From assembly GCA_049472215.1 (NCBI GenBank), contig JBLIRH010000002.1, positions 23,815-87,814 on the forward strand: a stretch of DNA of 64,000 nucleotides. The letters are read 5' to 3'. The notes under the pieces are model-generated. The model was not told where the DNA came from, made no database searches, and worked only from the letters and a program-made list of their open reading frames with translations. Of this stretch, positions 37,893 to 55,570 are shown piece after piece. The DNA comes from Thermoplasmatota archaeon. Its GTDB lineage: Archaea > Thermoplasmatota > Penumbrarchaeia > Penumbrarchaeales > Penumbrarchaeaceae. Numbering within the stretch: the stretch's first letter is position 1; every line of letters begins with the position of its first letter. Position numbers and translations under genes: made by a program.

Positions 37893-38240
37893 TTACCTCT
37901 TGCAGGACATCCTTCCCTGCTCAACCATATCCTCGGCATACCCGAGCCGGCCGGCCTCCTTTATCCTTCTCAGGCTCTCGTTCCTGTTGGAGCGAAGGAC
38001 GAAGGAAATGGTCCTCGCAAAGAAATTGTTCAGCTTTGCGCAATCCTTCGGATCAGAGAATTCGGCACAATCGGCACAGGTGGAATACCCGTGCTCCATG
38101 TTGCACGTTCTCACCTGGCACCAGGTCGCCTTCTCGTTCTTGGCACAACCCGGACACCTGCCGTTCTTGAACTTGCCGCATTCGCCGCAGTAGAGCCCGC
38201 AGAATGCAACAAGATCGGCGTTCGCTAATTTCTCGGCCAT
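37893..38240 (-). CDS. Cys-rich DUF3795-like protein
   Basis: FCGLYCGECGKFKNGRCPGCAKNEKATWCQVRTCNMEHGYSTCADCAEF matches the DUF3795 cysteine pattern. Confidence 0.6.
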   Translation of the reverse strand: MAEKLANADLVAFCGLYCGECGKFKNGRCPGCAKNEKATWCQVRTCNMEHGYSTCADCAEFSDPKDCAKLNNFFARTISFVLRSNRNESLRRIKEAGRLGYAEDMVEQGRMSCKR

Positions 38241-39257: not shown

Positions 39258-40556
39258 TCACTTCTCGACGATCTTCACCATGTGGGTGGCACATGAGATG
39301 CAAGGATCATATGCCCTTGCGATGAGCTCCATCTTGTTTCGGAGCTCCTGCTTTTCCAGCCCCTGGTCGCTGAGGAGCTTTCCGACCTTCTTCATGTCCT
39401 GGTCGATGATCAGATTGTTGATAGCGGTGGGGGTGATGATATTGGCATCGGTTATCATGCCTTCTTTGTCGATCCAATATTCATGATAGAGCGTCCCCCT
39501 GGGGACCTCCAGCGAACCTATTCCATGGCTCTCCCTGGGCTCCACCTTCATGGGCTTCTCATCCTTTATCCCCAGATACAGCAATCTGTCGATGAGCTCC
39601 ATCGCGCGTTCCCAGGCATAGATACACTCAAAGGCCTGGCCCAGGTTGTTGTGAAGTATGTTGTTCGATGGGAACGGGAAGAAGATATCCTTCGCCTCGA
39701 GGATGTGGGGGTGCCTGAACTCCTTCATGATGTTGAGCCTGGAAAGCGATCCCACCATCACGGCGTCCCCCCCGGAGGTCTTGCTCACCTTCGCTGTGGA
39801 CCATGGGATGATCTCCTCCTTGATCACCTTCCGGTAATCGGAGAGAGGGAACCTCCTGTCGTCAAGTGCGATCATGTCGCCCATCAACGTGAACTCGTCA
39901 TTTTCGGAGGAGACGAGCGTGGAATACGGAGCTGTCAGCTCCATCTCCGAGGGATACGACAACGATGAGAACAACCTGTAGGCCTCGACAGTATCCTTCA
40001 CGTTCTCCCTGAGCTTGTCTCGAAGCTCCACGAGCTTCCTTCTCGATGGGATCCCAGTGAAACCTCCGATTATCGGTTTCTCGGGATGTATCGGCCTGCC
40101 GCCGATGAGCTCCTGGATGTCGTTCCCGATCCCCTTCAGCTTCAGCGCCCTGTTGACCTCGACGGGATGGTCCTTGTAGAGGGCTATCGCGTTGGGCATC
40201 CCGAGATAGTCCGGCAGCGCAAGGAAATATGTGTGGAGATAGTGGCTCTCAAGGATCGATCCCATGTGTATGAGCTCCCTTAGAAGCTCCGTCTGCTCCG
40301 AAACCTCGACCTCGAATGCCTGCTCGATCGCTTTTATCGATGCAAGCTTGTGGGAAACGGTGCATATGGCGCATATCCTGGTCACTATGGAGGGAACATG
40401 CCTGAAGTATTTGCCCCGGACCAGGACCTCGAAGAACCTGGGACCCTCGGTGATCGAGAAATTTACATCCTTTATCCGGTCACCGTCGAATTCCAGGAAT
40501 ATCTCCCCGTGCCCTTCGACCCTGGCGACCGGCTCTATCTCTACGTACTTCTTCAC
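39258..40556 (-). CDS. [NiFe]-hydrogenase large (catalytic) subunit, group 3-like
   Basis: 432 aa. The N-terminal ARVEGHGEI and RICAICTVSH (nt 40350..40379) and the C-terminal DPCISCATH (nt 39282..39308, checked on the DNA) supply both CxxC pairs that ligate Ni-Fe. Only 7 aa (MVKIVEK) follow the His. The GTG start overlaps the upstream stop (GTGA). Confidence 0.9.
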   Translation of the reverse strand: MKKYVEIEPVARVEGHGEIFLEFDGDRIKDVNFSITEGPRFFEVLVRGKYFRHVPSIVTRICAICTVSHKLASIKAIEQAFEVEVSEQTELLRELIHMGSILESHYLHTYFLALPDYLGMPNAIALYKDHPVEVNRALKLKGIGNDIQELIGGRPIHPEKPIIGGFTGIPSRRKLVELRDKLRENVKDTVEAYRLFSSLSYPSEMELTAPYSTLVSSENDEFTLMGDMIALDDRRFPLSDYRKVIKEEIIPWSTAKVSKTSGGDAVMVGSLSRLNIMKEFRHPHILEAKDIFFPFPSNNILHNNLGQAFECIYAWERAMELIDRLLYLGIKDEKPMKVEPRESHGIGSLEVPRGTLYHEYWIDKEGMITDANIITPTAINNLIIDQDMKKVGKLLSDQGLEKQELRNKMELIARAYDPCISCATHMVKIVEK

Positions 40557-41245
40557 TGGTCATCCCTCCTTGATCCGGCAAGATGCTCCATGACCTTCTT
40601 TCCTTCCTCGGAGTAGGAGAAGAGCTTGATCAGATCGATCACGTGGTCGAGGTTGATCCCGTACTTCGTGTAATCCCTGACCGCGAACTTGATGAGGTCC
40701 TCGTGGAATACGACCCCCCTGCAGCCGATACAGGTCGAACCGTTCCTCGTGCAGTAAGCGTTGCACCCGGAATATGTGAGAGGTCCGAGACAGATGTTTC
40801 CCCGGTAAAGGTTGCAGGATTCTCCCTGAAGTGGACACATAGCGCATACGACCGTTGCTGACAGGTCAAGGTCCCTGCAGAGAGGAACATACGGGCAATC
40901 TCCCGATGTCGGGCAGTCCCGGCAGCTCTGCTCGTGCTGGGACATTGTCAGCTGAAGGATCGTCCTCCTGAGATCGTAGAGCTTCCTCGAATTGGTATGG
41001 ATGATCATGTTCTCCCTGATGGGGGTCTGGCAGGATTCCCTGATGATCTTCGACTTCCCCTCCCCCAGTTCCACCAAGCACATCCTGCAGTTCCCGGTGT
41101 TCAATTTCCCGAGCACCGGATTGTAGCAGATGTGGGGAAGCTCCACTCCCCTCTCAATGCAAAGCTGCAGTATGGTCTGGCCGGGTTTCCCGAAATACTC
41201 CTTGCCGTCAATGACCACCCTCACCTTCTTCTCCACCATCGTCAT
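40553..41245 (-). CDS. HoxU/NuoG-N-terminal-like Fe-S protein fused to the medial/distal-cluster half of a group 3 [NiFe] small subunit
   Basis: 230 aa. The [2Fe-2S] motif is C40..C53xxC56..C72 (HICYNP...GNCRMC...ESC). The His-ligated [4Fe-4S] is HEQSCRDCPTSGDC (Hx3Cx2Cx5C). Then follows VCAMCPLQGESCNLYRGNICLGPLTYSGCNAYCTRNGSTCIGCRG, with 8 Cys in the CLGPxTxxGCxAxC...CxGCxG pattern of MvhG/FrhG/sulfhydrogenase-delta C-termini. Confidence 0.8.
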   Translation of the reverse strand: MTMVEKKVRVVIDGKEYFGKPGQTILQLCIERGVELPHICYNPVLGKLNTGNCRMCLVELGEGKSKIIRESCQTPIRENMIIHTNSRKLYDLRRTILQLTMSQHEQSCRDCPTSGDCPYVPLCRDLDLSATVVCAMCPLQGESCNLYRGNICLGPLTYSGCNAYCTRNGSTCIGCRGVVFHEDLIKFAVRDYTKYGINLDHVIDLIKLFSYSEEGKKVMEHLAGSRRDDQ

Positions 41246-42988
41246 CTACTCCACCTCCTCGACGGGCTTGTCGAAGGGGCCCATCCTTTCAAGCTCCTTG
41301 TAGAGCCTGGCTTTCAGGATCTGGTTCGACCAGTGGATAGCTCCCTGATTGTAGTTCTTCATCCTATTGATGCGGTCCTCGATGACACTTGGGTCCGTAT
41401 TGGGATACTGACCGCCTCCGGTGATGCACCCCTTCAGGCACGGAATGAACTCCACGAAATCGTAATCCTCGATATTGGAGAGAACATTGTCCGCATTGGT
41501 CAGGTCGGTCACCGTCGCGACCTTGAAATGAACGTCGGGATAGTCAACGGTCCTAACCACGGTCCCATCCTCGAGAACGATCTTCTGAAGCACATTCTGC
41601 CTTACCTTCAGGGCCATGGTGTAGTCCACGACCTCGTCCCCGAGCCCATCGGTCGCAGGCGTATCCGCAAGGATATCGATCAACGGCTCCGTCATGACGA
41701 ACCTGTCGAAGGAGACCGTTTCGATATCGCAGAGGTCGACGTTGATGCGGTTCTTCTGGATCAGCCTCGAGACCTCCTTGGTGGAGATCACAGCATCGAA
41801 GTCCGCCATCTTCTTCATGGCAGTGCACGGAGTGATCATTGCCAGGAAAACGGGCCCGTACCTCTTCTCGATCATCTCCCTGGCGATCGGGCCTGGTCTC
41901 GCTTCAAGATCGAGATAGTCCTTGTACTCGAATTTGTGCTTGGTGATCCAGATGTTGGCGGAGGGGCACCACGACATGATCTTGGTCCTTCCCGGATCGT
42001 CCAGCGAATCCTGGACCGTCTTGAATATCGACACATGCTGGGCTGCGGCGAAGTTGAAGACCTTCCACATGCCGAGCTGCTTCAGAGCGACGATGACCTT
42101 CCTCATGAGGGCGTGGGTGTTGTCAGGTTCATCGACCTGAAGGTTCTCAGAAAGTGAGGCCAGGATCATGGGATCGACCAGGGCGACCACGCGCTCTCCG
42201 CTTTTCAGGGCGTTCTCGAGCTTCTTGATGTTGTGTTCCCTCTCCTTCAGGGCCCCGCAGAAGCAGAACTGCACGCACTGGCCGCATGAGATGCAGGTCG
42301 TCCTAGCAAAGGTCGACCCGAAGGGGGTCGAGACCCTTTCCTTCCAGTTCCTGCCCACCATGGAGATCGCCTTTACCCCGAGTCCCTCGTCGCAGACATT
42401 GACGCATCTCCGGCAGGATATGCACTTCTCGGGCAGATAGTTGACCACGGGGTCCTTGATCTCCTCAACATCATCCGGTAACTGCCTGTCGATGGGCAGG
42501 GGGAGCGTCACGTTCTTATGGGGGTCCATGGTAGCGAACTTCTGGAAGTAGTAGATGACCTCGGACTCCCTGACGGGGCAGCCCCTTATGGTGTAATCGA
42601 CCTCTATGAAATAGTCCAGGGGATACGCCTTCTTCAGCGGCGTGGTATTGATCATGGTGGTCCCGTAGACCGCCTTGTAAGCTTCGGAGGCTCCCTGTAT
42701 GTCCTTTCCCGTGGCAACCCCGCCGGATGCAGCGCAGGTCCCTATCCCCACCACCCTTCTCGAGTTCTTCCTGATGTGGTGGAGGACCTCGATATCCTCC
42801 TCGGTCACCACCGCACCTTCCACGAAGGCTATGTCAAGCATCCCGAAATCCTGCCCCGAGGAGGCCATGGAGAATACCCTGATGTCAAGGGATTCGAAGA
42901 TCTCCAGAAGCTCCTCCTCGCAGTTGAGAATGGCCAGCTGGTCGCCGGCGCAGGAAGTGAGACCGAATATGCCGACCTTCACCTTCAT
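41246..42988 (-). CDS. Fusion protein of a [NiFe] small-subunit proximal-cluster domain, a 2x[4Fe-4S] ferredoxin and an [FeFe]-hydrogenase H-domain (with its small-subunit-like C-terminus)
   Basis: ORF 41246..43114 trimmed to the ATG at 42988, which forms an ATGA overlap with the NuoF-like stop. The first ~155 aa (MKVKVGIFGLTSCAGDQ...GIGTCAASGG...IRGCPV) are the Oxidored_q6-type small subunit. CISCRRCVNVCDE and CISCGQCVQFCFC follow. The last ~330 aa align along their length to clostridial HydA (LKQLGMWKVFNF / MSWCPSANIW / ITPCTAMKK / DAVISTKEVSRLI / EFIPCLKGCITGGGQ / RINRMKNYNQ). Confidence 0.8.
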   Translation of the reverse strand: MKVKVGIFGLTSCAGDQLAILNCEEELLEIFESLDIRVFSMASSGQDFGMLDIAFVEGAVVTEEDIEVLHHIRKNSRRVVGIGTCAASGGVATGKDIQGASEAYKAVYGTTMINTTPLKKAYPLDYFIEVDYTIRGCPVRESEVIYYFQKFATMDPHKNVTLPLPIDRQLPDDVEEIKDPVVNYLPEKCISCRRCVNVCDEGLGVKAISMVGRNWKERVSTPFGSTFARTTCISCGQCVQFCFCGALKEREHNIKKLENALKSGERVVALVDPMILASLSENLQVDEPDNTHALMRKVIVALKQLGMWKVFNFAAAQHVSIFKTVQDSLDDPGRTKIMSWCPSANIWITKHKFEYKDYLDLEARPGPIAREMIEKRYGPVFLAMITPCTAMKKMADFDAVISTKEVSRLIQKNRINVDLCDIETVSFDRFVMTEPLIDILADTPATDGLGDEVVDYTMALKVRQNVLQKIVLEDGTVVRTVDYPDVHFKVATVTDLTNADNVLSNIEDYDFVEFIPCLKGCITGGGQYPNTDPSVIEDRINRMKNYNQGAIHWSNQILKARLYKELERMGPFDKPVEEVE

Positions 42989-44283
42989 GACCTGCCACCT
43001 CCCATGGGACAGACCTTTGAAGGGCACTCTCCGCGGATATGAGAGTCGAAGACCTCCCTGAAATTGTTGTAGGCGGAGGAGAATGGGGTGGAAGCCGTCT
43101 TTCCAAGGCCGCAAATTGAAGCGGTGTCCATGACACCGGAGATCTCCATCGCCCGCTCAAGCTCCCCGTCCTTGGCTTTGCCCGTTCTCAACCTCTCCAA
43201 TATCCTTGATACGTGATGGGTCCCGGTCCTGCAGGGCGTACACTTTCCACAGCTCTCGTGTGAGAAGAAACCCATGAGATTGTGAGCGATATCAACAACG
43301 CAGCTCTTCTCGTTGAAGACCACGATCACCCCCGATCCCAGGGTGAGGCCGTCGGCCTCCGCATCCTCCATGGAGAACTTCGTCTCCAACCTCTCTTTGG
43401 GTATCAGCGAACCGGATGCGCCCCCGAGGAGCACGAAACCGATCTCCTTTCCGTCCACCCCGCCGCCGAGGTCGTTGATGATATCCATCAACGTGCATTT
43501 ACCCATTTCAACCTCGTAGGCACCTGGAGACTTGACATGCCCCGTCAGGGAAACGATCCTCGTCCCCGTCGATTGGGTTGTTCCTATTGACCTGTAATTG
43601 TCCCCGCCCTCCATGATGATGTAGGGGACGTTGGCAAGGGTCTCAACGTTGTTGACACAGGTGGGTTTATCGAACACACCCGAGACCGAGGTCCTTGTTA
43701 TCTTTATCTTGGCCTGGCCGGCCATCCCCTCGATGGATTGGAGGATCGCGGAAGATTCACCGCAGACATATGCCCCTGCACCCTTTACGACCTCGATCTC
43801 CAGATCGAAGTTCTTTCCAAGGATCCCCTTACCGAGAAGGTTGCGGTCCTTTGCCGTCTGAATGATGGACCTGAGCTTTGGGGGAAGGAAAGGGTATTCC
43901 CCGCGATTGTAGATGAAGGCCTTTTCGATGCCCATCGCATAGGCCGCGATCGTCATTCCCTCGATCAGGAGGAATGGGTCCGTCTCCACCAGCGTCCTGT
44001 CCTTAATAGTGCCCTCCTCGCCCTCGTCGAAGTTTGCAATGAGGTACTTCGGTGTTTTGTTCTGCATGGCCACTGATTCCCATTTGAAGCCGGCGTGGAA
44101 CCCGGCCCCTCCCCTTCCCCTGATGCGGGATTTCGAGACCTCGTTCACGACCCACCTTGAACCTTTATCAAGGGCTTTCTTCAATGCCTCGTAACCGCCC
44201 GCGCTGATGTAATGGTCGATGTTCCACCCGTCGTAACCGCCCCTTCCACGGTTCTTCAAGAGGATCCTGGTTTCCTGGACCAA
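42985..44283 (-). CDS. NuoF/HoxF/HydB-like NAD(P)H-binding FMN and [4Fe-4S] subunit
   Basis: GRGGAGFHAGFKWE is the FMN site. ANFDEGEEGTIKDR, GAGAYVCGESSAILQSIEG, ESCGKCTPCRTG and ICGLG supply the N3-type cluster. The TTG start abuts the upstream TGA. Confidence 0.9.
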   Translation of the reverse strand: MVQETRILLKNRGRGGYDGWNIDHYISAGGYEALKKALDKGSRWVVNEVSKSRIRGRGGAGFHAGFKWESVAMQNKTPKYLIANFDEGEEGTIKDRTLVETDPFLLIEGMTIAAYAMGIEKAFIYNRGEYPFLPPKLRSIIQTAKDRNLLGKGILGKNFDLEIEVVKGAGAYVCGESSAILQSIEGMAGQAKIKITRTSVSGVFDKPTCVNNVETLANVPYIIMEGGDNYRSIGTTQSTGTRIVSLTGHVKSPGAYEVEMGKCTLMDIINDLGGGVDGKEIGFVLLGGASGSLIPKERLETKFSMEDAEADGLTLGSGVIVVFNEKSCVVDIAHNLMGFFSHESCGKCTPCRTGTHHVSRILERLRTGKAKDGELERAMEISGVMDTASICGLGKTASTPFSSAYNNFREVFDSHIRGECPSKVCPMGGGRS

Positions 44284-44763
44284 TCACTCACCCCCCTTTC
44301 TCAGATCCTCGATCAGCTGGATCGCCTTTCCAATGTCCAGGTTGCGGTGGACGTCGTGATCGATCATCATGGCAGGTGACCCATCACACTGGCCGATGCA
44401 CGAGCTTTCCTCCAAAGTGAACAAGCCGTCGGCCGTGGTCTCTCCCTCCTTTATGGATAGGTGACCGCTGATGCCTGCCATGAGGTCCTTCGATCCCTTG
44501 CCGTGGCAGACGACACCGCGGCATAGCCTGATGACATGCTTTCCTTCCGCTTTCAATGTGAATTGTTCATAGAAGGTGACTACCGAATATATCCGCGTCA
44601 AGGGGATCTCAAGAGCATCTGCGATGTACCTTGCTGTCTCCCAGGTGATGCAGCCCCATGTCTCCTGGATCTTGTGAAGAAGAAAAAGCACTGGGGAATC
44701 GAGTCCCTTCGCCTCAGCCAGCAATCCGTCCAGAACCTTTATGTCCTTGACCCCGATCACCAT
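44284..44763 (-). CDS. NuoE/HoxE/HydC-like thioredoxin-fold [2Fe-2S] subunit
   Basis: 159 aa. IRLCRGVVCHGKGS ... ESSCIGQCDGSPAMMID gives the Cx4C...Cx3C pattern of NuoE-type [2Fe-2S] proteins. Confidence 0.85.
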   Translation of the reverse strand: MVIGVKDIKVLDGLLAEAKGLDSPVLFLLHKIQETWGCITWETARYIADALEIPLTRIYSVVTFYEQFTLKAEGKHVIRLCRGVVCHGKGSKDLMAGISGHLSIKEGETTADGLFTLEESSCIGQCDGSPAMMIDHDVHRNLDIGKAIQLIEDLRKGGE

Positions 44764-44847: not shown

Positions 44848-45957
44848 TTAGCATATCCTTGGGACCGGATCCCCGTAGGGCGGGTCCATGATCCGCTTTC
44901 CGCCTACGACCGTCTGAAGGATCACGTTCTTCCCCTCGGGCCCCACGATCCCGATCACTGCGGCATCCTTACCCGCCTCCGTCCTTCTTATCGCTTTGAG
45001 GACCTCATCCTCGCTTCCCGGAGCAACGGCGAGGATGACCTTGCCCTCGTTCCCTATCTCGAAGGGATCGAACCCGAGCATGTCGCAGGCACTCGAGACA
45101 GCTTCCTTTACGGGGATATCGGATTCCCTGACCAGGATAGAGCACCCGCTCTTGGAGCACCATTCGTTCAATCCGTTGGCCAGCCCGCCCCTTGTCAGGT
45201 CCTTGGCGGCAATAACGCCTCCTACGTCCAAGGCGGCCTCGATCACTTCCCCCATCGGAGCGAGGTCGGAGACCAGGTCGGTTTCGAAACCGTAGCCCTC
45301 CCTGAACGAGAGCAGGGATATTCCATGGTCCCCCACGGACCCGGAAAGAATGATGATGTCCCCTTCCCGGACCGCATCGTCCCTCAGCCATCGGGAAACA
45401 GGTGATCTGGCCCCCCGCTTCGATCTAAGCTCTGATGCTCGTTCGAAGTTCCGTTGCAGAGCCGGATGCATCTCTCCGATACCGGCAGTGGTTATGACCA
45501 TCCCCTTCACCCCTCCCTTCTCCACGACCTTCGTGTCCCCCGTTACCACGGTTACATGGGCCCTTTCAGAAGCAATTCCGATCGACCCCGAGATCCTGCG
45601 GAGGAGTTCTTTATCGGTCCCTTCCTCGATCACCATCGATAGTGCGAGGGCTTTAGGCCTTGCCCCGACGACCCAGAGGTCATTCACAGTTCCAAAGACC
45701 GAGAGGGACCCAATATCCCCCCCGGGGAATTCGAGAGGCCATACGGTATGACCGTCGATGGTAAAGGCGACATTATCAATGACGGCGGAATCGTCCAGGA
45801 GTTCCGGCGGGACCCCTTCCCGGTCTTCGCCTCCCGATGACCTTCTAACGAAGGGGATCACGAGCTCCTTCAGCATCCTCTGCATCAGCTCGCCTCCTGC
45901 GCCCTCGCCGATCTTGACCTTCCTGTCACCGTTCATAAGTGGCCCCAAAAAGCTCAT
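44848..45957 (-). CDS. hypE: [NiFe]-hydrogenase maturation protein HypE (carbamoyl dehydratase)
   Basis: It has an AIR-synthase-like fold and the diagnostic C-terminus ...PPYGDPVPRIC. The N-terminal IGEGAGGELMQRML resembles the E. coli HGSGGQAMQQLI. The start is ATG 45957 or 45936. The ORF-track GTG at 45996 lies inside the upstream gene. Confidence 0.85.
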   Translation of the reverse strand: MSFLGPLMNGDRKVKIGEGAGGELMQRMLKELVIPFVRRSSGGEDREGVPPELLDDSAVIDNVAFTIDGHTVWPLEFPGGDIGSLSVFGTVNDLWVVGARPKALALSMVIEEGTDKELLRRISGSIGIASERAHVTVVTGDTKVVEKGGVKGMVITTAGIGEMHPALQRNFERASELRSKRGARSPVSRWLRDDAVREGDIIILSGSVGDHGISLLSFREGYGFETDLVSDLAPMGEVIEAALDVGGVIAAKDLTRGGLANGLNEWCSKSGCSILVRESDIPVKEAVSSACDMLGFDPFEIGNEGKVILAVAPGSEDEVLKAIRRTEAGKDAAVIGIVGPEGKNVILQTVVGGKRIMDPPYGDPVPRIC

Positions 45958-45967
45958 GTGGAACTGA

Positions 45968-48900
45968 CTAATCACCTTTGCGGTCCCTTCTGACACGGAA
46001 CGTGAAGAAGAGGTAGCCGCCGAGGCCGATCAGCGCTATCGCCGATACTATTGAGATAACTATTATCATCATGCGCTCACCGGAGGAGCGTCCACCATTG
46101 GAAACGATCCTGAACATATCCGAGATGTTCATCGTTCCACCATAGGTCCCGTTGAGGGTCTGGGCCTCTATCTCCAGAGCGATCAGGAGCTCTTCATCGA
46201 GTTTGAGACCTTCGGGCAGCTCTATCGTGATCCGTCCGTTCGACCTTGGTCCGATCATTATGTTCCTCTCTCCGGGAAGGGACATCGTCCCGACCTCGCC
46301 TGTGATCGTGAAACGAAGGATCAGGGGACTGTCGTTCTCGAGGGTTATCTCAAGATACGGTATCTCGGTGTCTATATTTCTTTCAGGTTCGGAGAAGACC
46401 GCCCTCCATGGCATATCGCCCCAGCCCCAGAGGGAGACAATAACATAGATCGTATCGAAGACAACATTACCTGCCCGGTCCTCAACTTTCAGGTCGATCC
46501 TGTGCTCCCCGGGGCTCAGGTCCCTTACCGTTCTCATTATCGACTGGGTGCTGATATGGATCACACCATCCTTGTCCGATGTCCATGTGACGTTCAATAT
46601 GTCGCCGTTTGGCATGTCAGGATCATACCCGGATGCCTCGAAGACGATCAGTGATCCCGGAAGAAGAACGCTTCCGTTCACCGGCTGAACGATGGAAACG
46701 TCTCGGGGAGGGTCTTCGACGGGCTCGACGATCACTCCGATAAGGTAGAATGCTTTCTCTTCGCCGTCCGATACGGAGATCTGAACATATCCTTCCCCCG
46801 CCTGGTCCTCCTCCGGCACTATCCAGAGGAGCCCGTCAGCGATCGTAGCCTTGAAGGGGAAGTATTCGGTGATGGCGAACATGAGCTCGTCCCCGTCTGG
46901 GTCCTCGAAATCATTCAAAAGGTCGCTGTACAAGGGACCTTCGTCCTCCACCATGTAAAGCACAAGTTCGCTGCCCCCGAAGATCGGCCTTTGATTGTTG
47001 TGGGCGGTGGTTCCGAAGATTATCCCGGACAGTTCGGACACGGGGCCGTCATCATCGACCGAGGCCATGACATATTCGTAGGTCGTGTTATCCGAAAGGC
47101 CCATGTCCTCATAGAACGGGACCGATCTGGAGAGCCTTGTTATCTCCTTGAAATCCTCATCCCCGGGATCCCTCCGATAGATGATATATCCCCAGATATC
47201 CTGGGTGAGAGGGGGGTCCCATTCGATGACAAGCGTGTTATTGCCGCGGGCCCTTGCCTCGATGTTCCTCGGGGGGCCGGGGGGTATGATGTCCACTGGG
47301 ATTCCCTTTATGATATCCGTACTATCCGAGGTCGATCCGGCATGATCAATGGAGACCATCCGGAACGAATACTCCTCACCGTTCTGGAGGCCCCTCACGA
47401 TGATGGCGTTGTCAGGATAGTAGACGATTATCGGATTGAATTCAGTCTGTCCCTTTTTCACGTAGATCAAGGCCCGGTACAGGTCCTCCCCTACCCAATC
47501 CCATTCCAGGGAGATGGCCTTGCCCTCGGGGATCGGTTCCAGCCTGAAGTTCCCCGGGGGGAGGGGTTTCTGGTCCACGTCCACCTGTGTAGTATTGCTC
47601 CACCCCTTCGATCCTACATCATTGTATGCCCTGACCCTGAAATACTGCGTGGTGTTCTCGTTCCCGTACACAGGCAAGAATGCATCCCGGGTGGACCAGG
47701 AAACGAGCTTCGATGAGAAATCCTTCGAGTTCGAACGCTGTACGATATATCTAGATCCTTCATCCGTCCAGCTGAGGTCCACCCTGTCAGATCCCCTCTC
47801 GTAACTGGATCCCAATTTTGGTATGTCCGGCATATCCCAGTACCTGTCCATCATGAGGGGGTAGGGATCACGTGCAAGAAAGGGGATGTCGGTATCTCCG
47901 ATGCCGTCACCCGGCTTTCGACCGTTGGAGCCGTCATCTTCTCCGGTGTATGAATCGTAATAATTGCCCTCGAGGGAAGTGGAGTTGTACCAGGTGGAGA
48001 GGGGGGGGCCGGTTGCCACCTTCTCGTTGTCGATGAAGGAGTTGTAGAATATCCGGGAATCCTCGCCCTCGTCGATCGCCTCCTTGTTACCTATGAACCT
48101 GCTGCGGGTGATGATGGAGTTGAACGGGTCTTCAAGTCCCTTGTCGCAATCGATGAACTCGGAATCCCTGACGACGCCGTTCGAGAGGTCCTTCACCGTC
48201 ACCATGTTCCTGAATGTGCTTCCGTGGATGGTCGATGTACTGGTGGAGGAAAGCTCAATTCGCCCCCCCTCTACCTGCGTATCTATCAAAGATAGATTCT
48301 GTGAAGATACCAATTGAATTGAATTATTGATGAGCCTGGAATCAATTAAAGTGACCTTGTCGATCCTGACATCCAATCCCACGGTACAATTCGATACGGA
48401 AAAGCTCTTGTAGACATTCCTGCCCAGCAGTATCGCACCCTTGCCGTAGTTGGATATCGAGACCCTGGTCATCGGCGTTGAGTAAAAGGGGATTATCGCG
48501 GTTCCCGTTCCGCTGCCCTTCATATCCAACCCATCTATCGCCGACCCCCATTCCATGTTCTTAATTGTGCAGTTCAACATTCGCACATCTTCGAATTCCA
48601 GCTTTCCCCATGTGAGATCGAAACCTTGGATGTAGGAGCGGTTGATGGTAAGGGAGGATGGCACATTCCTTACACCCTGAAGAGCGATCGTTGACGAGGG
48701 GGCCCCAGACGGCAAGAACAATATGCGGGAGCTGTCATCGGGGGTGTCAGCATCGCCGTCGAGATCGGTCGCGTTGAGATACCCATAGTTCAGTATCCCG
48801 ACATCTTTCATCATAAGAGAGGAATTTATCAGGGAAATATGGCCGCCGTTCGTGATACCGATATTCTCAACGACCACCGTTGAGTTCTTGATCGTGAGGT

Positions 48901-49105
48901 GATCGATCACTCCGATACCCTGACCGCAAAGAACCGATAGGTTCTCCCAGGTGACCGGGCCGGTCGATGCATTCACCATGAAGGTTTCGTTGAACTCGAG
49001 ATCGTATCCCGACCATGTTCGTCCCTGTACCGAACCCGTTGGTTCTAACTGGGGGACCGAAACCAGCAGAATGAGGGATAACAGCACTATACGAACTCTT
49101 TCCAC
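45968..49105 (-). CDS. Giant cell-surface protein with a right-handed beta-helix, two FN3 domains, cadherin/Ig-like modules and a C-terminal TM anchor
   Basis: 1045 aa with a signal peptide (IVLLSLILLVSVPQLEP) and beta-helix repeats in the N-terminal half. FN3 units are PPGNFRLEPIPEGKAISLEWDW...YSFRMVSIDHAG and PPRNIEARARGNNTLVIEWDPP...YEYVMASVDDDG. The TM helix is MMIIVISIVSAIALIGLGGYLFF, followed by RVRRDRKGD. Confidence 0.7.
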   Translation of the reverse strand: MERVRIVLLSLILLVSVPQLEPTGSVQGRTWSGYDLEFNETFMVNASTGPVTWENLSVLCGQGIGVIDHLTIKNSTVVVENIGITNGGHISLINSSLMMKDVGILNYGYLNATDLDGDADTPDDSSRILFLPSGAPSSTIALQGVRNVPSSLTINRSYIQGFDLTWGKLEFEDVRMLNCTIKNMEWGSAIDGLDMKGSGTGTAIIPFYSTPMTRVSISNYGKGAILLGRNVYKSFSVSNCTVGLDVRIDKVTLIDSRLINNSIQLVSSQNLSLIDTQVEGGRIELSSTSTSTIHGSTFRNMVTVKDLSNGVVRDSEFIDCDKGLEDPFNSIITRSRFIGNKEAIDEGEDSRIFYNSFIDNEKVATGPPLSTWYNSTSLEGNYYDSYTGEDDGSNGRKPGDGIGDTDIPFLARDPYPLMMDRYWDMPDIPKLGSSYERGSDRVDLSWTDEGSRYIVQRSNSKDFSSKLVSWSTRDAFLPVYGNENTTQYFRVRAYNDVGSKGWSNTTQVDVDQKPLPPGNFRLEPIPEGKAISLEWDWVGEDLYRALIYVKKGQTEFNPIIVYYPDNAIIVRGLQNGEEYSFRMVSIDHAGSTSDSTDIIKGIPVDIIPPGPPRNIEARARGNNTLVIEWDPPLTQDIWGYIIYRRDPGDEDFKEITRLSRSVPFYEDMGLSDNTTYEYVMASVDDDGPVSELSGIIFGTTAHNNQRPIFGGSELVLYMVEDEGPLYSDLLNDFEDPDGDELMFAITEYFPFKATIADGLLWIVPEEDQAGEGYVQISVSDGEEKAFYLIGVIVEPVEDPPRDVSIVQPVNGSVLLPGSLIVFEASGYDPDMPNGDILNVTWTSDKDGVIHISTQSIMRTVRDLSPGEHRIDLKVEDRAGNVVFDTIYVIVSLWGWGDMPWRAVFSEPERNIDTEIPYLEITLENDSPLILRFTITGEVGTMSLPGERNIMIGPRSNGRITIELPEGLKLDEELLIALEIEAQTLNGTYGGTMNISDMFRIVSNGGRSSGERMMIIVISIVSAIALIGLGGYLFFTFRVRRDRKGD

Positions 49106-49529: not shown

Positions 49530-50993
49530 TCATGGACCGGGAGTGGGTTTTCTACCCCTTCTTCCCGAGATCATAAGGACGGCGAAAAGTAAGACCATTA
49601 TTGTCCCGGCCGAACAACCAACGATCAGCCAGAAACCATTTCCGGGGCCTTCTTTCTTGTTCTGGTCAGGTTCGACCGGAACATCATCGTCGACAGCGTC
49701 CCCCTTATCGAATGCCACTGGGTATTCGTCCGTGGCATTCGCGATACCGTCGATGATATAGGGGTCGTCAACGATGCTGTCGTTGTCATGATCCGGGCCC
49801 CAGTGGTCGGACCAGAGGTTCCCTTCGGTCCCTTCGTACCAGCTGTTGGACTCCCCGTTGTCCATAGCCTGGAAACCCTTCGGGCCGTTATCGTAGAATC
49901 TATTTGCATAGACCATGTTATGCCTGGATGGAGGACCCCTCCCCAGCCATGTGTCGATGGTGACAGCATGCCACGTTCCGTTGGAGAAAACGTTATGATG
50001 GACCATCGCTCCATCGGTCGAATCGAGGTACACGGCGTTCTCGTTCCCTTCGAAGTCCGAACCGGTTATTGCGATGCCGCTGGAATCGCTCAGGAACACA
50101 CCATATGTGTTCTTGTAGAAATTGCATTTCGATATGATAGAATCTGATGCAGCGGAGAGCTGGATGCCGTTGGTGTTGTAACGGATCGAGGTCTCCTCGA
50201 TCGAGGAGTTGGCGATACTCATCATGAATATGCCGTTGTTGTTCGTATCTATGTAGGACCTCGCTATCCTTATCCCGCTGGAAACGATCGACCCGTTCGA
50301 GGTCTCAGAAATTATTCCGAAGCCGTAGTTCAAGGTTGTAGTAGTGTCTATTATTTCCACCTCGCTGGAATCGACCAGATGTATTCCGGCTGTGAGTCCC
50401 AATATGGCTGTGTTCGATTCTGCTATAACGCTGCTGATGGTCACGTTACGGGACATGTTCACCAATATCCCGTTCTCCACGTTGACCTTGCAGAGGACCC
50501 TTTCTATGGAAATGCTCCTGCCCTGGACATATACCCCATCGTAGGAGCCGAAGAAACCCGAATCACCGATCCAGATGCCTGAACAGTTTCGGACCTCGAC
50601 CCCCCTAGTGCAGTAATATGTCGCCACGTTCCTGACCCTGACATTGGTGGAGTTCTCGATAAGGATGCCCGGGTGCTTTGGGAGTTTCCCGTTCACGAAA
50701 AGGTTGTAATCCACCACCACGTGTCTTGTAGAGTTCCTGATGACCACCCCCGGGGAGGTCGTGGTATTGAACCAGAAACCGGAGATCAAGTACGGATCGT
50801 CCAAGGTTCCGTTGCCGGTCACTCCCTCAGGAAGCTCCCCTGTGAAATTTGAATCGTTGATATGGATAGGGCCGTGGAGCTTCAATAATGGACCCTCGTC
50901 ATCCTGTCCGGAAACGATGCCATGGAACGATAGGATGATAACCAATGAGAACAAGGCCAGCAGAGATCTAGAAAGTTTGCCCATTGATCGCAC
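49530..50993 (-). CDS. Surface-anchored right-handed beta-helix protein (NosD/PbH1-repeat type)
   Basis: 487 aa with a signal peptide (LLALFSLVIILSFHGIVSG). It has about 10 PbH1-like repeats (VRNVATYYCTRGVEV, ISKCNFYKNTYGVFL, ITGSDFEGNENAVYL, VHHNVFSNGTWHAVTI) and a TM helix (FWLIVGCSAGTIMVLLFAVLMI). Confidence 0.7.
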   Translation of the reverse strand: MRSMGKLSRSLLALFSLVIILSFHGIVSGQDDEGPLLKLHGPIHINDSNFTGELPEGVTGNGTLDDPYLISGFWFNTTTSPGVVIRNSTRHVVVDYNLFVNGKLPKHPGILIENSTNVRVRNVATYYCTRGVEVRNCSGIWIGDSGFFGSYDGVYVQGRSISIERVLCKVNVENGILVNMSRNVTISSVIAESNTAILGLTAGIHLVDSSEVEIIDTTTTLNYGFGIISETSNGSIVSSGIRIARSYIDTNNNGIFMMSIANSSIEETSIRYNTNGIQLSAASDSIISKCNFYKNTYGVFLSDSSGIAITGSDFEGNENAVYLDSTDGAMVHHNVFSNGTWHAVTIDTWLGRGPPSRHNMVYANRFYDNGPKGFQAMDNGESNSWYEGTEGNLWSDHWGPDHDNDSIVDDPYIIDGIANATDEYPVAFDKGDAVDDDVPVEPDQNKKEGPGNGFWLIVGCSAGTIMVLLFAVLMISGRRGRKPTPGP

Positions 50994-53011: not shown

Positions 53012-55570
53012 TCATCTTCTGTCGACCGGCTGGAACCTGGGAGCGGACTGCGGCGGAGCGCCGCCGCCCCCGTAAGAGTACTGCACCGGATACTGTGTTT
53101 GTCTCGGAGGTTCCCTCTTCCTCCTGGACCTGGATATCATGAACCCGGACAGGGCCAGAAGAATGAATACCAGGAGAATTACCAGGAATATGATGGCTGT
53201 CGGACCTATGCCTGTCTGCCTTCCCTTGACATCCGTGGAGGAGGATGGTATGTCGATGATCAGCTGAACGGTGGCAGTATCGGTCCCGCCTCCGTAATCG
53301 TATACGGTCACCTGGATCTGGTAGGTGCCGTTCTCGAGATCGGTGACAGACGGAAGCTCAAGGGTGAACTCCAGATCGTCAGCGGCAACATCCGGGTCCA
53401 CGCCGTCGTTCAGCATCTCGATCCCCGAGCCGCCGCCGATGGACCTCAGATCGGCAATGACGATCTCGATGTCACCGAGGCCGTCGGGGTCCTCTATGAG
53501 CGCGTAGAGTATGATCCGCTCTCCGGAGGTGTTCGAATTGATAACCCCTGGCTCCACCGATACGAGGCTGATGACCGGCGGGGAGTTGATCGACTCCTCC
53601 CTCACATCGATCTCCAGCGACCTCGAATCGGTGCCCCCTTTGCCATCCAGGACGGTCACGGTAACCCTGTCCATCACGGGCTGGGAGGGGGCCTGGTAGA
53701 TCACCTCGTCCCCGGTTCCCTCGATCGTTCCCCTTTCGGCATCGTAATCGTACTCGAGTTCGTCCCCGTCCTGATCTATTGCGACGACCCGGAGGTTGGT
53801 GGTCCCATCGACCGTGAGCACGTTCTTGCCGGCCTTGAACGAGGTGATCACCGGGGGTCTGTTCGGGAGACCCTCCTGGACCATGACGAAGGTGGAGGCC
53901 GTATCCCTGCCTCCGGAAGGGTCCGAAACGGCCAGATTGAAGTAATATTTTCCGGGTTCGGAGGGTGCTTTCCAATCCCACAGGGGGCCTTCCCCTGTCA
54001 GTGTACCGTCGTCCACCGTCAAAGAATATGTAAGCGGCTCCTCGTCGATATCGGCTGCGACGGCCCTCACCCTGCAGGTGGATCCCGCAGTCGTAACATT
54101 GGGTTCGACGGCGAAATACGTTATCTCGGGCCTGTGATTGACGGGGACATAGGTCAATGACGTCTTCACCGCGTTGTAAGCGTCCAGCATTCCATAGCCA
54201 TACTGGGTATTATAAGTTGGAGAAAGGTCCCTGTCATAGGGCTCTCCCCTGGCCTCGGACGTCTGATGAAGTATCATCGAGATGTGGTTGGTCCTGTCCG
54301 TAGGTGCCAGAGAGGACTTTGCCTGAAGCATCAGTGCAACCGTTCCCGAAACATGTGGCGTCGCATAGGAGGTCCCGGACCCGGTCGACCATCCGCTGGC
54401 CCCCTGGAGCCGCGAAGTCCTGGAGGATGAAGCGAAGGATATTCCTACACCCGGGGCAACGACATCGGGCCTCATCTCGTCATAGGGATTGGTGTCTCCG
54501 TCATCGGTCCTCGGTCCGTAGGTTGAAGAGGCCCAGTACTCGTCATCGGACCTGTCGATCGTGTCCTGGTCGCTCACCGCCCCCACGACTATCGACCGGT
54601 CCGCCCAGGTCGTTCCCGCACCGGATGCGTACTGGGACCCTGAATTTCCCGCTCCCTGGACCACGACGATCCCCTGCACGGTAAGCTCGTCCATTGCCTG
54701 CACTACAGCACCATTATTGTTTCCCACACCGAGGCTCAATGATACTATGTCGACACCTGTGTAACCCGTGTCGCCCCAAACGGTCTCCCTGTTGTCCGAG
54801 CACCATTGGAAGGCATCCATGAGGCTGTTCTGGTTGAGGGTGATGCCGCTCTGGCCTATTATCTTGATATCGATAAGGCCCGCTGCGGGCGCCACCCCTT
54901 TATGGGACCCGTCCGCGTCACCCCTCCCAAGGGCGATCGAAGCGACCCCGGTCCCGTGCCCCGTCCTGTCGTCCGGATCGAAGCTTCCGTCGTCGGGATT
55001 GAGGGGGGTGTTAATCGGTGCTGTAAAATCGACCCCGGCCACGAAGGCGTCCTGGAATGTTGGATGCTCGTTATCGACACCAGTATCCAGGACCGCAATG
55101 GTGACTCCTCTTCCGGTCATCCCGAGTTCCCTGGCGGTCCTCGGGCTGTACTCGTCTGACGGATTCGCCTTTATCGCCGCTGTGGAAACGTCCATCAACG
55201 TTCTGACAGTATCCTGCTTCTCGATCCTGACGATACCTGGTATTGATAATGTCGATTCCAGTTCTTCGAATGAATCATATCTGACCGAGATCACCGGAAC
55301 GATGTCATAGGCGTTCCATACCTCGCCTCCCTTCAAGGTGATGGCTTCGGATGCTCCCTCGATATATGACCGGTCTCGAAAATGAACAAATGTCCAGGCC
55401 GGATAGGTTGCTATATATTGATTGCTGAGCTCCATGTCGATATCGATGATGCGAAGGCCGGGGAAGAGATTGGAACTTTCATCATTTCTACCCGATACGT
55501 GGAGAAGACCCGCCATGCTGAGCATCATCACGAAAAGGATCGGCATCACGAACTTCCTTGCACCGGACAT
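53012..55570 (-). CDS. Membrane-anchored subtilisin-like serine protease (peptidase S8) with Ig/PKD-like repeats
   Basis: The catalytic triad blocks are TIAVLDTGVDNEHP (Asp), GHGTGVASIA (His) and GSGTSYATPHVSGTVALM (Ser). Four Ig-like repeats follow (e.g. LTYSLTVDDGTLTGEG, LEYDYDAERGTIEGTG). The TM helix is AIIFLVILLVFILLALSGFMI, with a cytoplasmic tail. Confidence 0.85.
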   Translation of the reverse strand: MSGARKFVMPILFVMMLSMAGLLHVSGRNDESSNLFPGLRIIDIDMELSNQYIATYPAWTFVHFRDRSYIEGASEAITLKGGEVWNAYDIVPVISVRYDSFEELESTLSIPGIVRIEKQDTVRTLMDVSTAAIKANPSDEYSPRTARELGMTGRGVTIAVLDTGVDNEHPTFQDAFVAGVDFTAPINTPLNPDDGSFDPDDRTGHGTGVASIALGRGDADGSHKGVAPAAGLIDIKIIGQSGITLNQNSLMDAFQWCSDNRETVWGDTGYTGVDIVSLSLGVGNNNGAVVQAMDELTVQGIVVVQGAGNSGSQYASGAGTTWADRSIVVGAVSDQDTIDRSDDEYWASSTYGPRTDDGDTNPYDEMRPDVVAPGVGISFASSSRTSRLQGASGWSTGSGTSYATPHVSGTVALMLQAKSSLAPTDRTNHISMILHQTSEARGEPYDRDLSPTYNTQYGYGMLDAYNAVKTSLTYVPVNHRPEITYFAVEPNVTTAGSTCRVRAVAADIDEEPLTYSLTVDDGTLTGEGPLWDWKAPSEPGKYYFNLAVSDPSGGRDTASTFVMVQEGLPNRPPVITSFKAGKNVLTVDGTTNLRVVAIDQDGDELEYDYDAERGTIEGTGDEVIYQAPSQPVMDRVTVTVLDGKGGTDSRSLEIDVREESINSPPVISLVSVEPGVINSNTSGERIILYALIEDPDGLGDIEIVIADLRSIGGGSGIEMLNDGVDPDVAADDLEFTLELPSVTDLENGTYQIQVTVYDYGGGTDTATVQLIIDIPSSSTDVKGRQTGIGPTAIIFLVILLVFILLALSGFMISRSRRKREPPRQTQYPVQYSYGGGGAPPQSAPRFQPVDRR

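Follow-up and report, generated by a model that had tools for sequence, protein, structure and literature searches.

Which protein carries the second half of the [NiFe] small subunit in the hydrogenase operon of a Thermoplasmatota archaeon? The operon lies in a window of 64,000 nucleotides (nt; GenBank assembly GCA_049472215.1, contig JBLIRH010000002.1, positions 23,815 to 87,814), whose own numbering is used throughout. Its five genes occupy 39258–44763 of the minus strand in the order HydC-HydB-X-Y-HyhL, where X is a HyhS-HydA fusion and Y, the fourth gene, encodes an iron-sulfur (Fe-S) protein. A first-pass annotation had proposed that the small subunit was cut in two, with the halves fused to different partners in X and Y. 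Our analysis supports this division and refines the nature of the partners, both of which appear to be halves of one HydA-type [FeFe] hydrogenase. X and Y together would add up to exactly one small subunit of group-3b type and one HydA of M3 type, both cut at an inter-domain linker and rejoined crosswise, and Y, the chimeric HydD of a hybrid hydrogenase, would carry four clusters and complete the [NiFe] relay with its small-subunit half. We estimate the probability of this explanation as a whole at about 0.8.

Y and its parts (positions in amino acids, aa) are located as follows:

40553–41245, minus strand: Y (HydD in the literature), ATG-started open reading frame of 230 aa; chimeric Fe-S subunit with a HydA/NuoG N-terminal module and a small-subunit C-terminal domain
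40988–41230, minus strand: [2Fe-2S] domain of Y, aa 6–86; Pfam Fer2_4, E 1.8e-15; ligands C40, C53, C56 and C72
40895–40936, minus strand: His-Cys3 [4Fe-4S] motif of Y, HEQSCRDCPTSGDC, aa 104–117; H104-x3-C108-x2-C111-x5-C117; Pfam NADH-G_4Fe-4S_3
40607–40858, minus strand: small-subunit C-terminal (medial/distal cluster) domain of Y, aa 130–213; matched by NCBIfam sulfhyd_HydD, PDB 9nez_A and hhalign
40715–40849, minus strand: eight-Cys core of Y, VCAMCPLQ...CIGCRG, aa 133–177

The N-terminal half of Y had been described as starting like NuoG or HoxU with a plant-type [2Fe-2S] Cys4 set, and it does: all motifs quoted for it are present, and the Cys4 set within the Fer2_4 domain is followed by the HxxxCxxCxxxxxC [4Fe-4S] site, as at the N-terminus of HoxU and NuoG. 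The Pfam match to this second site (NADH-G_4Fe-4S_3, aa 93–117) has an E value of 9.3e-5 and lies below the gathering score. Among NCBIfam models, the N-terminal half corresponds to HoxU positions 6–117 (E 4.9e-19) and, over aa 8–132, to positions 1–121 of an [FeFe] hydrogenase family. Profile-profile comparison matched aa 7–129 to HydA positions 1–119 (E 3.9e-33), and comparison with the PDB aligned aa 8–126 to residues 4–117 of 8a6t_A. The pair of ferredoxin-type CxxCxxCxxxCP motifs expected after the His-ligated cluster in HoxU and NuoG is absent from Y, for which Pfam returned no Fer4 family even at E ≤ 0.1.

At this place Y carries eight cysteines with the spacing C-x2-C-x6-C-x7-C-x8-C-x3-C-x6-C-x2-C. 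The first-pass annotation had placed this core at 40715..40846; the start is correct, while the true end at 40849 lies 3 nt further on. Residues 125–180 could in principle form an ordinary ferredoxin-type 2x[4Fe-4S] domain whose likeness to a small subunit arises by chance from Cys-rich sequence, since HoxU and NuoG carry two [4Fe-4S] clusters here and the N-terminal half of Y matches HoxU as far as position 117. The lack of any Fer4 match speaks against this, as does the finding that the C-terminal segment, when tested alone, matched only two sulfhydrogenase-delta families; moreover, the HoxU-type Fer4 domain (HoxU positions 145–219) is found in X instead. In the search with full-length Y, aa 132–213 aligned to positions 165–248 of the 261-position sulfhydrogenase-I delta (HydD) model (NCBIfam, E 2.4e-13). 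Searched alone against the PDB with phmmer, the C-terminal 113 residues retrieved residues 162–255 of the delta subunit of Pyrococcus furiosus sulfhydrogenase I (SHI; 9nez_A) at E 7.5e-14, with all eight Cys in register and the helical tail behind them also aligned (Y aa 132–222). MvhG (5odc_E) followed as a weaker match (E 3.8e-5). Finally, hhalign comparison of a profile of 103 Y-family members with a profile of 40 intact small subunits aligned Y aa 130–213 to small-subunit positions 168–251 (probability 99.6%, E 1.5e-23). Together, the Pfam, PDB, profile-profile and segment-alone results refute the ferredoxin alternative, to which we leave practically no weight.

The medial/distal half assigned to Y in the first-pass annotation is therefore borne out, with all eight Cys aligned to SHI delta, and the homology claimed for residues 125–180 extends further than stated, to about aa 213–222. 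Of the three small subunits whose likeness had been proposed, sulfhydrogenase-delta is confirmed and MvhG holds more weakly; FrhG drops out, its ferredoxin-type C-terminus aligning with X. Y has no Oxidored_q6 match in Pfam, and the flavodoxin-like proximal-cluster domain sits in X. Judged by homology, Y contains half of a group-3b small subunit and is not a small subunit itself.

Across 103 homologues that are 29–95% identical to the Y of the window, 15 of the 16 cluster ligands are invariant, comprising all ligands of the [2Fe-2S] and His-Cys3 sites and seven of the eight small-subunit-derived Cys; the remaining one, C161, is conserved in at least 90%. Ligand conservation in the Y family is far beyond chance. 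An AlphaFold2 (AF2) model of Y reached a mean predicted local distance difference test score (pLDDT) of 91.5 and a predicted template modelling score of 0.83, suggesting that its two halves pack as one unit. Foldseek comparison of the full model with the PDB returned only NuoG- and HydA-type N-terminal matches among the top 50 (105–156 columns). The family is much larger than a single-sequence search had indicated: in a library of 1.84 billion representatives that search was swamped by NuoG N-termini and only four to five full-length relatives surfaced, whereas a profile search found more than 100 clusters of Y-type proteins of 206–238 aa, hosted by Thermoplasmatota, Bathyarchaeia, Nitrososphaerota, Asgard archaea and Desulfurococcaceae/Zestosphaera. 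Their database annotations read only "2Fe-2S cluster-binding protein", "YjgC" or "ferredoxin", because no Pfam family matches the C-terminal domain.

The complementary pieces are found in X:

41246–42988, minus strand: X (HyhS-HydA fusion), 580 aa; small-subunit N-terminal domain, HydA-type 2x[4Fe-4S] domain and [FeFe] H-domain
42494–42988, minus strand: small-subunit N-terminal (proximal cluster) domain of X, aa 1–165; Pfam Oxidored_q6 at aa 13–149; motifs C13-A-G-D16, C85 and C137
42239–42445, minus strand: HydA/HoxU-type 2x[4Fe-4S] (F-cluster) domain of X, aa 182–250; from family matches of the segment alone
41351–42193, minus strand: [FeFe] H-domain of X, aa 266–546; Pfam Fe_hyd_lg_C at aa 266–525, E 1.2e-22; motifs SWCP, TPCTAMK and PCLKGCITGGGQ

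The start of X at MKVKV is that of the annotated protein P0273 (580 aa, 100% identical) from a Thermoplasmatota metagenome-assembled genome (MAG). The preceding gene had been predicted to hold the proximal-cluster half fused to the H-domain, and the Oxidored_q6 and Fe_hyd_lg_C domains indeed lie on this one chain. NCBIfam models divide X into aa 2–166, corresponding to sulfhydrogenase delta (HydD) positions 5–168, and aa 180–546, corresponding to FeFe_hydrog_A6 positions 138–529. The same division emerged from profile-profile comparison, in which aa 1–172 matched small-subunit positions 7–174 (hhalign, E 1.6e-47) and aa 182–544 matched HydA positions 139–525 (E 1.2e-44), and from the PDB, where aa 2–165 aligned to SHI delta residues 3–164 and aa 176–542 to 8a6t_A residues 132–521. 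The Fer4 segment alone scored best against FeFe_hydrog_A6 (positions 139–225, E 2.7e-21, 75.6 bits), ahead of HoxU positions 145–219 (49.3 bits; the HoxU equivalent is X aa 186–259), which assigns both ferredoxin-type clusters of X to its HydA piece. X was also considered as a complete, FrhG-like small subunit with a ferredoxin-type C-terminus. This candidate was rejected, as the segment scores as an [FeFe] hydrogenase and is colinear with HydA into the H-domain; FrhG did not rank in the top 25 of the 41 families that the segment matched. In the H-domain, the aligned counterparts of P1, P2 and P3 in 7p5h_A, 8a6t_A and CpI are SWCP, TPCTAMK and PCLKGCITGGGQ. All four Cys ligands of the H-cluster are present, and the proton-relay Cys of TSCCP is replaced by Trp (SWCP).

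Placed side by side, the two proteins leave almost nothing over. In small-subunit coordinates X covers profile positions 7–174 and Y 168–251, adjoining to within a few residues; of HydA, only a 19-residue linker (positions 120–138) is missing. Joining X1–163 to Y130–230 gives a chimera of 264 aa, colinear with intact small subunits of 257–276 aa apart from a 3-residue indel at the junction. Both small-subunit halves rank group-3b delta first and both HydA halves rank FeFe_hydrog_A6 first in NCBIfam.

A rival view is that the split is only apparent, X and Y being a single gene that a sequencing error or an in-frame stop interrupts, or that is read through at its TAG. The layout in the window invites this suspicion: X and Y share one reading frame, only the TAG stop of X separates them, the ATG of Y follows directly (41243–41248, minus strand), and read-through would give a chain of 811 aa. 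In eight related Thermoplasmatota MAGs, the stop at this junction is TAG in five and TAA in one, the other two having a stop further ahead, and GGAGGTG or a purine-rich variant precedes the ATG of Y in all eight, which indicates that the two proteins are translated separately. The locus designated L010, whose Y is 45% identical, has X and Y genes that overlap in different frames, and at four loci (L013, L015, L019 and L020) other genes stand between X and Y. The more than 100 clusters of separate Y-type proteins likewise argue against an artefact, which we consider wildly improbable. Read-through of TAG, or its decoding as pyrrolysine, was rejected on the stop variation and the GGAGGTG-like motif.

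X-type and Y-type genes co-occur on contigs of Thermoplasmatota, Bathyarchaeia, Asgard archaea and a Zestosphaera-like lineage, and the two orders in which other genes separate X from Y are X-E-F/GltD-Y-L and E-F-Y-L-X'. Next to the hybrid operon of L010, on the opposite strand, lies a canonical four-gene group-3b hydrogenase with an intact small subunit of 248 aa (L010:9758–13687); intact and split designs thus coexist in one genome. A Bathyarchaeia MAG (L021:3337–12705) carries E-F-Y-X' without an adjacent large subunit, followed by an 825-aa HdrA/MvhD-like protein, an intact 247-aa small subunit and a large subunit. On a metagenome contig (L017:1072–2487), a separate 146-aa NuoG-N-type protein, an 82-aa fragment of the small-subunit C-domain and a 248-aa tandem of two such C-domains are encoded downstream of a GltD-like gene.

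Two forms of X could be told apart across the window and loci L010, L012, L013, L015, L019, L020 and L021, both paired with a Y-type gene. Form I (window, L010 and L013) keeps the P1 Cys and has Trp for the proton-relay Cys (SWCP, around X aa 335–345). Form II (442–477 aa; Bathyarchaeia, Asgard and Zestosphaera-like contigs) has lost the P1 Cys and keeps the P2 and both P3 Cys; its H-domain looks degenerate by these motifs. The proximal-cluster motif varies as well. In the X of the window, aa 13–16 (42941–42952, minus strand) read C-A-G-D, where Asp replaces the second Cys of other small subunits; CAGDQ is invariant in related intact 3b-like small subunits, and the motif reads CAGE in L010 and CxGC in form II.

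How did the crosswise pair arise? Across hydrogenases, complex I and formate dehydrogenases, intact small subunits and the order 2Fe2S-His4Fe4S-2xFer4 are close to universal, which makes a derived origin the simplest reading of the split state. The cutting and rejoining also implies that M3-type HydA and the 3b-type small subunit were already complete beforehand. As judged from the architecture of the products, the pair most likely goes back to one reciprocal recombination of hydA with a neighbouring small-subunit gene. Both chimeras would result at once if a segment spanning the hydA/hyhS boundary had been excised and reinserted a single time or had undergone unequal exchange, and such a single exchange is favoured because the pieces are exactly complementary and intermediates are absent from the lists searched. 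Specifically, no form such as an intact small subunit fused to HydA_C occurred in those match lists.

The two chimeric genes may instead have been made by two independent fusion or fission events, a possibility that concerns their origin only and that we hold to be the lesser one, albeit a substantial one. Inter-domain linkers are the usual sites of surviving fusions, and gene order differs among lineages. Domain boundaries are natural fusion points, so coinciding breakpoints do not prove a single event. Two separate events would nevertheless have had to lose or duplicate no piece, leaving small-subunit ranges that meet and only the 19-residue HydA linker gone, and to leave no intermediates in the lists searched, whereas one excision with reinsertion gives both products. 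It is a further step, which we take tentatively and at slightly less than even odds, to propose that the entire hybrid lineage stems from a single exchange between the genes of an M3-type HydA and a group-3b-type small subunit, the same scaffold recurring in the family of Bathyarchaeia, Asgard and Zestosphaera-like archaea that has lost one H-cluster ligand.

The system itself belongs to a published class; what is new is the corrected assignment of domains and clusters and the evolutionary reading. Gene clusters of this type have been described as group F [FeFe]/group 3f [NiFe] hybrid hydrogenases and reported as evidence of an ancient, intertwined history of both H2 enzymes (Greening et al. 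2024, Cell; PMC11216029). The Y family is the "HydD" of that paper, where it is termed a "NuoG-like conduit" protein. HydA-HyhS fusions were made there recombinantly, and an AF2-multimer model of the complex was presented; activity is reported only for two related fusions, one clearly and the second weakly active. Cofactors of HydD were placed from 5ODC chain E (the small subunit MvhG) and 7T2R chain A according to the methods, so the structural likeness of HydD to a small subunit was exploited implicitly. The split of the small subunit is unmentioned in the main text and methods, and our literature search found no later paper stating it.

The window shows a group-3 small-subunit domain and a C-terminal H-domain on X, contiguous HyhL, HydB, HydC and HydD, and the H-cluster Cys. 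Its architecture and its Thermoplasmatota host, both in agreement with the published group, would place the operon in the group F/3f class. The same five genes are shared (NuoE-like, NuoF-like, HyhS-HydA fusion, HydD and HyhL), as is a four-cluster HydD, which is predicted here. Two differences stand out: the HydB of the window is a minimal NuoF, whereas that of the modelled complex has a GltA domain; and the paper gives the fusion protein three small-subunit clusters (PMC11216029), whereas two of these are assigned here to HydA-type F-clusters, the true medial/distal domain being located in HydD.

Comparison with better-known enzymes brings out the same rearrangement. In P. furiosus SHI (PDB 9nez, 9e15 and 9e1j), both delta domains lie on one 261-aa chain and electrons pass to beta and gamma; here, the domains are distributed over two chains, and each has been joined to part of a HydA. 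The HydA of electron-bifurcating HydABC (8a6t, 7p5h) is likewise one chain there and cut after the His-ligated cluster here, and its TSCCP proton-relay Cys corresponds to the Trp of SWCP in X. With HoxY/HoxU (5xf9) and the HydS/HydA of the A. mobile NiFe-HydABCSL (7t2r), the operon shares a NuoE/F/G-like diaphorase: the N-terminal half of Y corresponds to 7t2r_A residues 2–115, and the Fer4 domain of X to HoxU positions 145–219. The small subunits of the Hox-type (5xf9_C, 189 aa) and A. mobile (7t2r_E, 179 aa) enzymes have no medial/distal domain, whereas here it is kept, on the HoxU-like chain.

What would this arrangement mean for electron flow? Y would bind one [2Fe-2S] and three [4Fe-4S] clusters, and its C-terminal domain would dock on the proximal-cluster domain of X beside HyhL, the arrangement of an intact small subunit. 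From the Ni-Fe site, electrons would then pass through the proximal cluster in X to the medial and distal clusters in Y and on to the His-ligated [4Fe-4S] and [2Fe-2S] clusters of Y. Those of the H-cluster would run through the F-clusters of X to the same N-terminal module of Y and continue through the NuoF/NuoE-like flavin module to NAD(P). Connected crosswise in this way, the two catalytic modules would be interlocked. Only 17 residues separate C117, the last ligand of the His-ligated cluster, from C134, the first small-subunit Cys, and the distal or medial pair is thus probably wired to the N-terminal clusters of Y itself.

Several points weigh against this wiring. An AF2 model of the chimera X1–163 + Y130–230, built with the 40 intact small subunits as alignment, reached a pLDDT of only 67.9 and fell below 50 across aa 164–204, the Cys-rich region. 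In Foldseek, this low-confidence model was colinear with 9e1j_A and 9nez_A over 258–263 columns at 34–35% identity, with a template modelling score of about 0.51 and a root-mean-square deviation of 12 Å to SHI delta. By analogy with HoxY/HoxU and A. mobile HydS/HydA, the proximal cluster of X could feed its F-clusters directly, leaving the medial/distal pair as a side branch. Electron bifurcation by this operon also appears doubtful, because the HydB of the window is a minimal NuoF of 432 aa.

The side branch deserves to be taken as an explanation of its own, in which the small-subunit-derived domain of Y is an independent ferredoxin-like arm, for example for ferredoxin docking or exit. Enzymes of the Hox and A. 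mobile types do function without a C-terminal domain in their small subunits; on L017 this domain is found in genes of its own and in two tandem copies; and the low-confidence chimera model did not reproduce the canonical packing. On the other side, conservation of the domain and its eight Cys is strict, an X-type gene always accompanies it, and the published AF2-multimer work placed the HydD clusters with a small-subunit structure (PMC11216029, methods). We consider an independent branch unlikely and prefer a Y whose small-subunit half completes the [NiFe] relay.

The remaining genes of the operon are:

39258–40556, minus strand: HyhL, group-3b-like [NiFe] large subunit, 432 aa, GTG start; best NCBIfam match ShyA (325.8 bits), PDB 9nez_D at E 1e-74
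42985–44283, minus strand: HydB, NuoF-like diaphorase in its minimal form, 432 aa; Pfam Complex1_51K, SLBB and NADH_4Fe-4S; NCBIfam nuoF_fam, E 6e-127
44284–44763, minus strand: HydC, NuoE-like [2Fe-2S] thioredoxin-like subunit, 159 aa; Pfam 2Fe-2S_thioredx, E 1.8e-42

The genes are tightly packed: HydC abuts HydB, HydB overlaps X by 4 nt, and the stop of Y overlaps the GTG start of HyhL, the last gene, by 4 nt (GTGA). HyhL is closest to the alpha subunits of sulfhydrogenases I and II in both NCBIfam and PDB comparison. The diaphorase varies among loci. It is a minimal NuoF in the window and in L010 (413 aa), a NuoF with Fer4 domains of 606–657 aa in several other lineages, and a NuoF-GltD fusion of 1052 aa in L013 (L013:3096–6254); L015:5035–6996 was also compared. 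As far as domain content goes, this variation may mark the difference between bifurcating and non-bifurcating versions.

A HypE gene for [NiFe] cofactor maturation directly precedes the operon on its upstream side (44848–45996, minus strand; AIRS and AIRS_C domains, C-terminus ...PRIC). No HydE, HydF or HydG was found among the few flanking open reading frames scanned, most of the window lying outside that scan. About 1 kb downstream of HyhL, on the same strand, a DUF3795 Cys-rich protein of 115 aa is encoded (37893–38240, minus strand). The operon is flanked by large predicted surface or secreted proteins, all on the minus strand: a 1045-aa protein with a C-terminal hydrophobic anchor, a NosD/beta-helix protein and a subtilase with PKD and Ig domains (45968–49105, 49530–50993 and 53012–55570).

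With this result, the assignments of clusters to modules in electron-flow models change, and X expressed without Y would have an incomplete [NiFe] relay. If a single exchange founded the lineage, the published view that the fusion protein holds three small-subunit clusters would need correcting. The hybrids would then derive from modern multi-domain [FeFe] and [NiFe] hydrogenases and would not be ancestral to them, and the crosswise scaffold would underlie a larger, barely described archaeal family.

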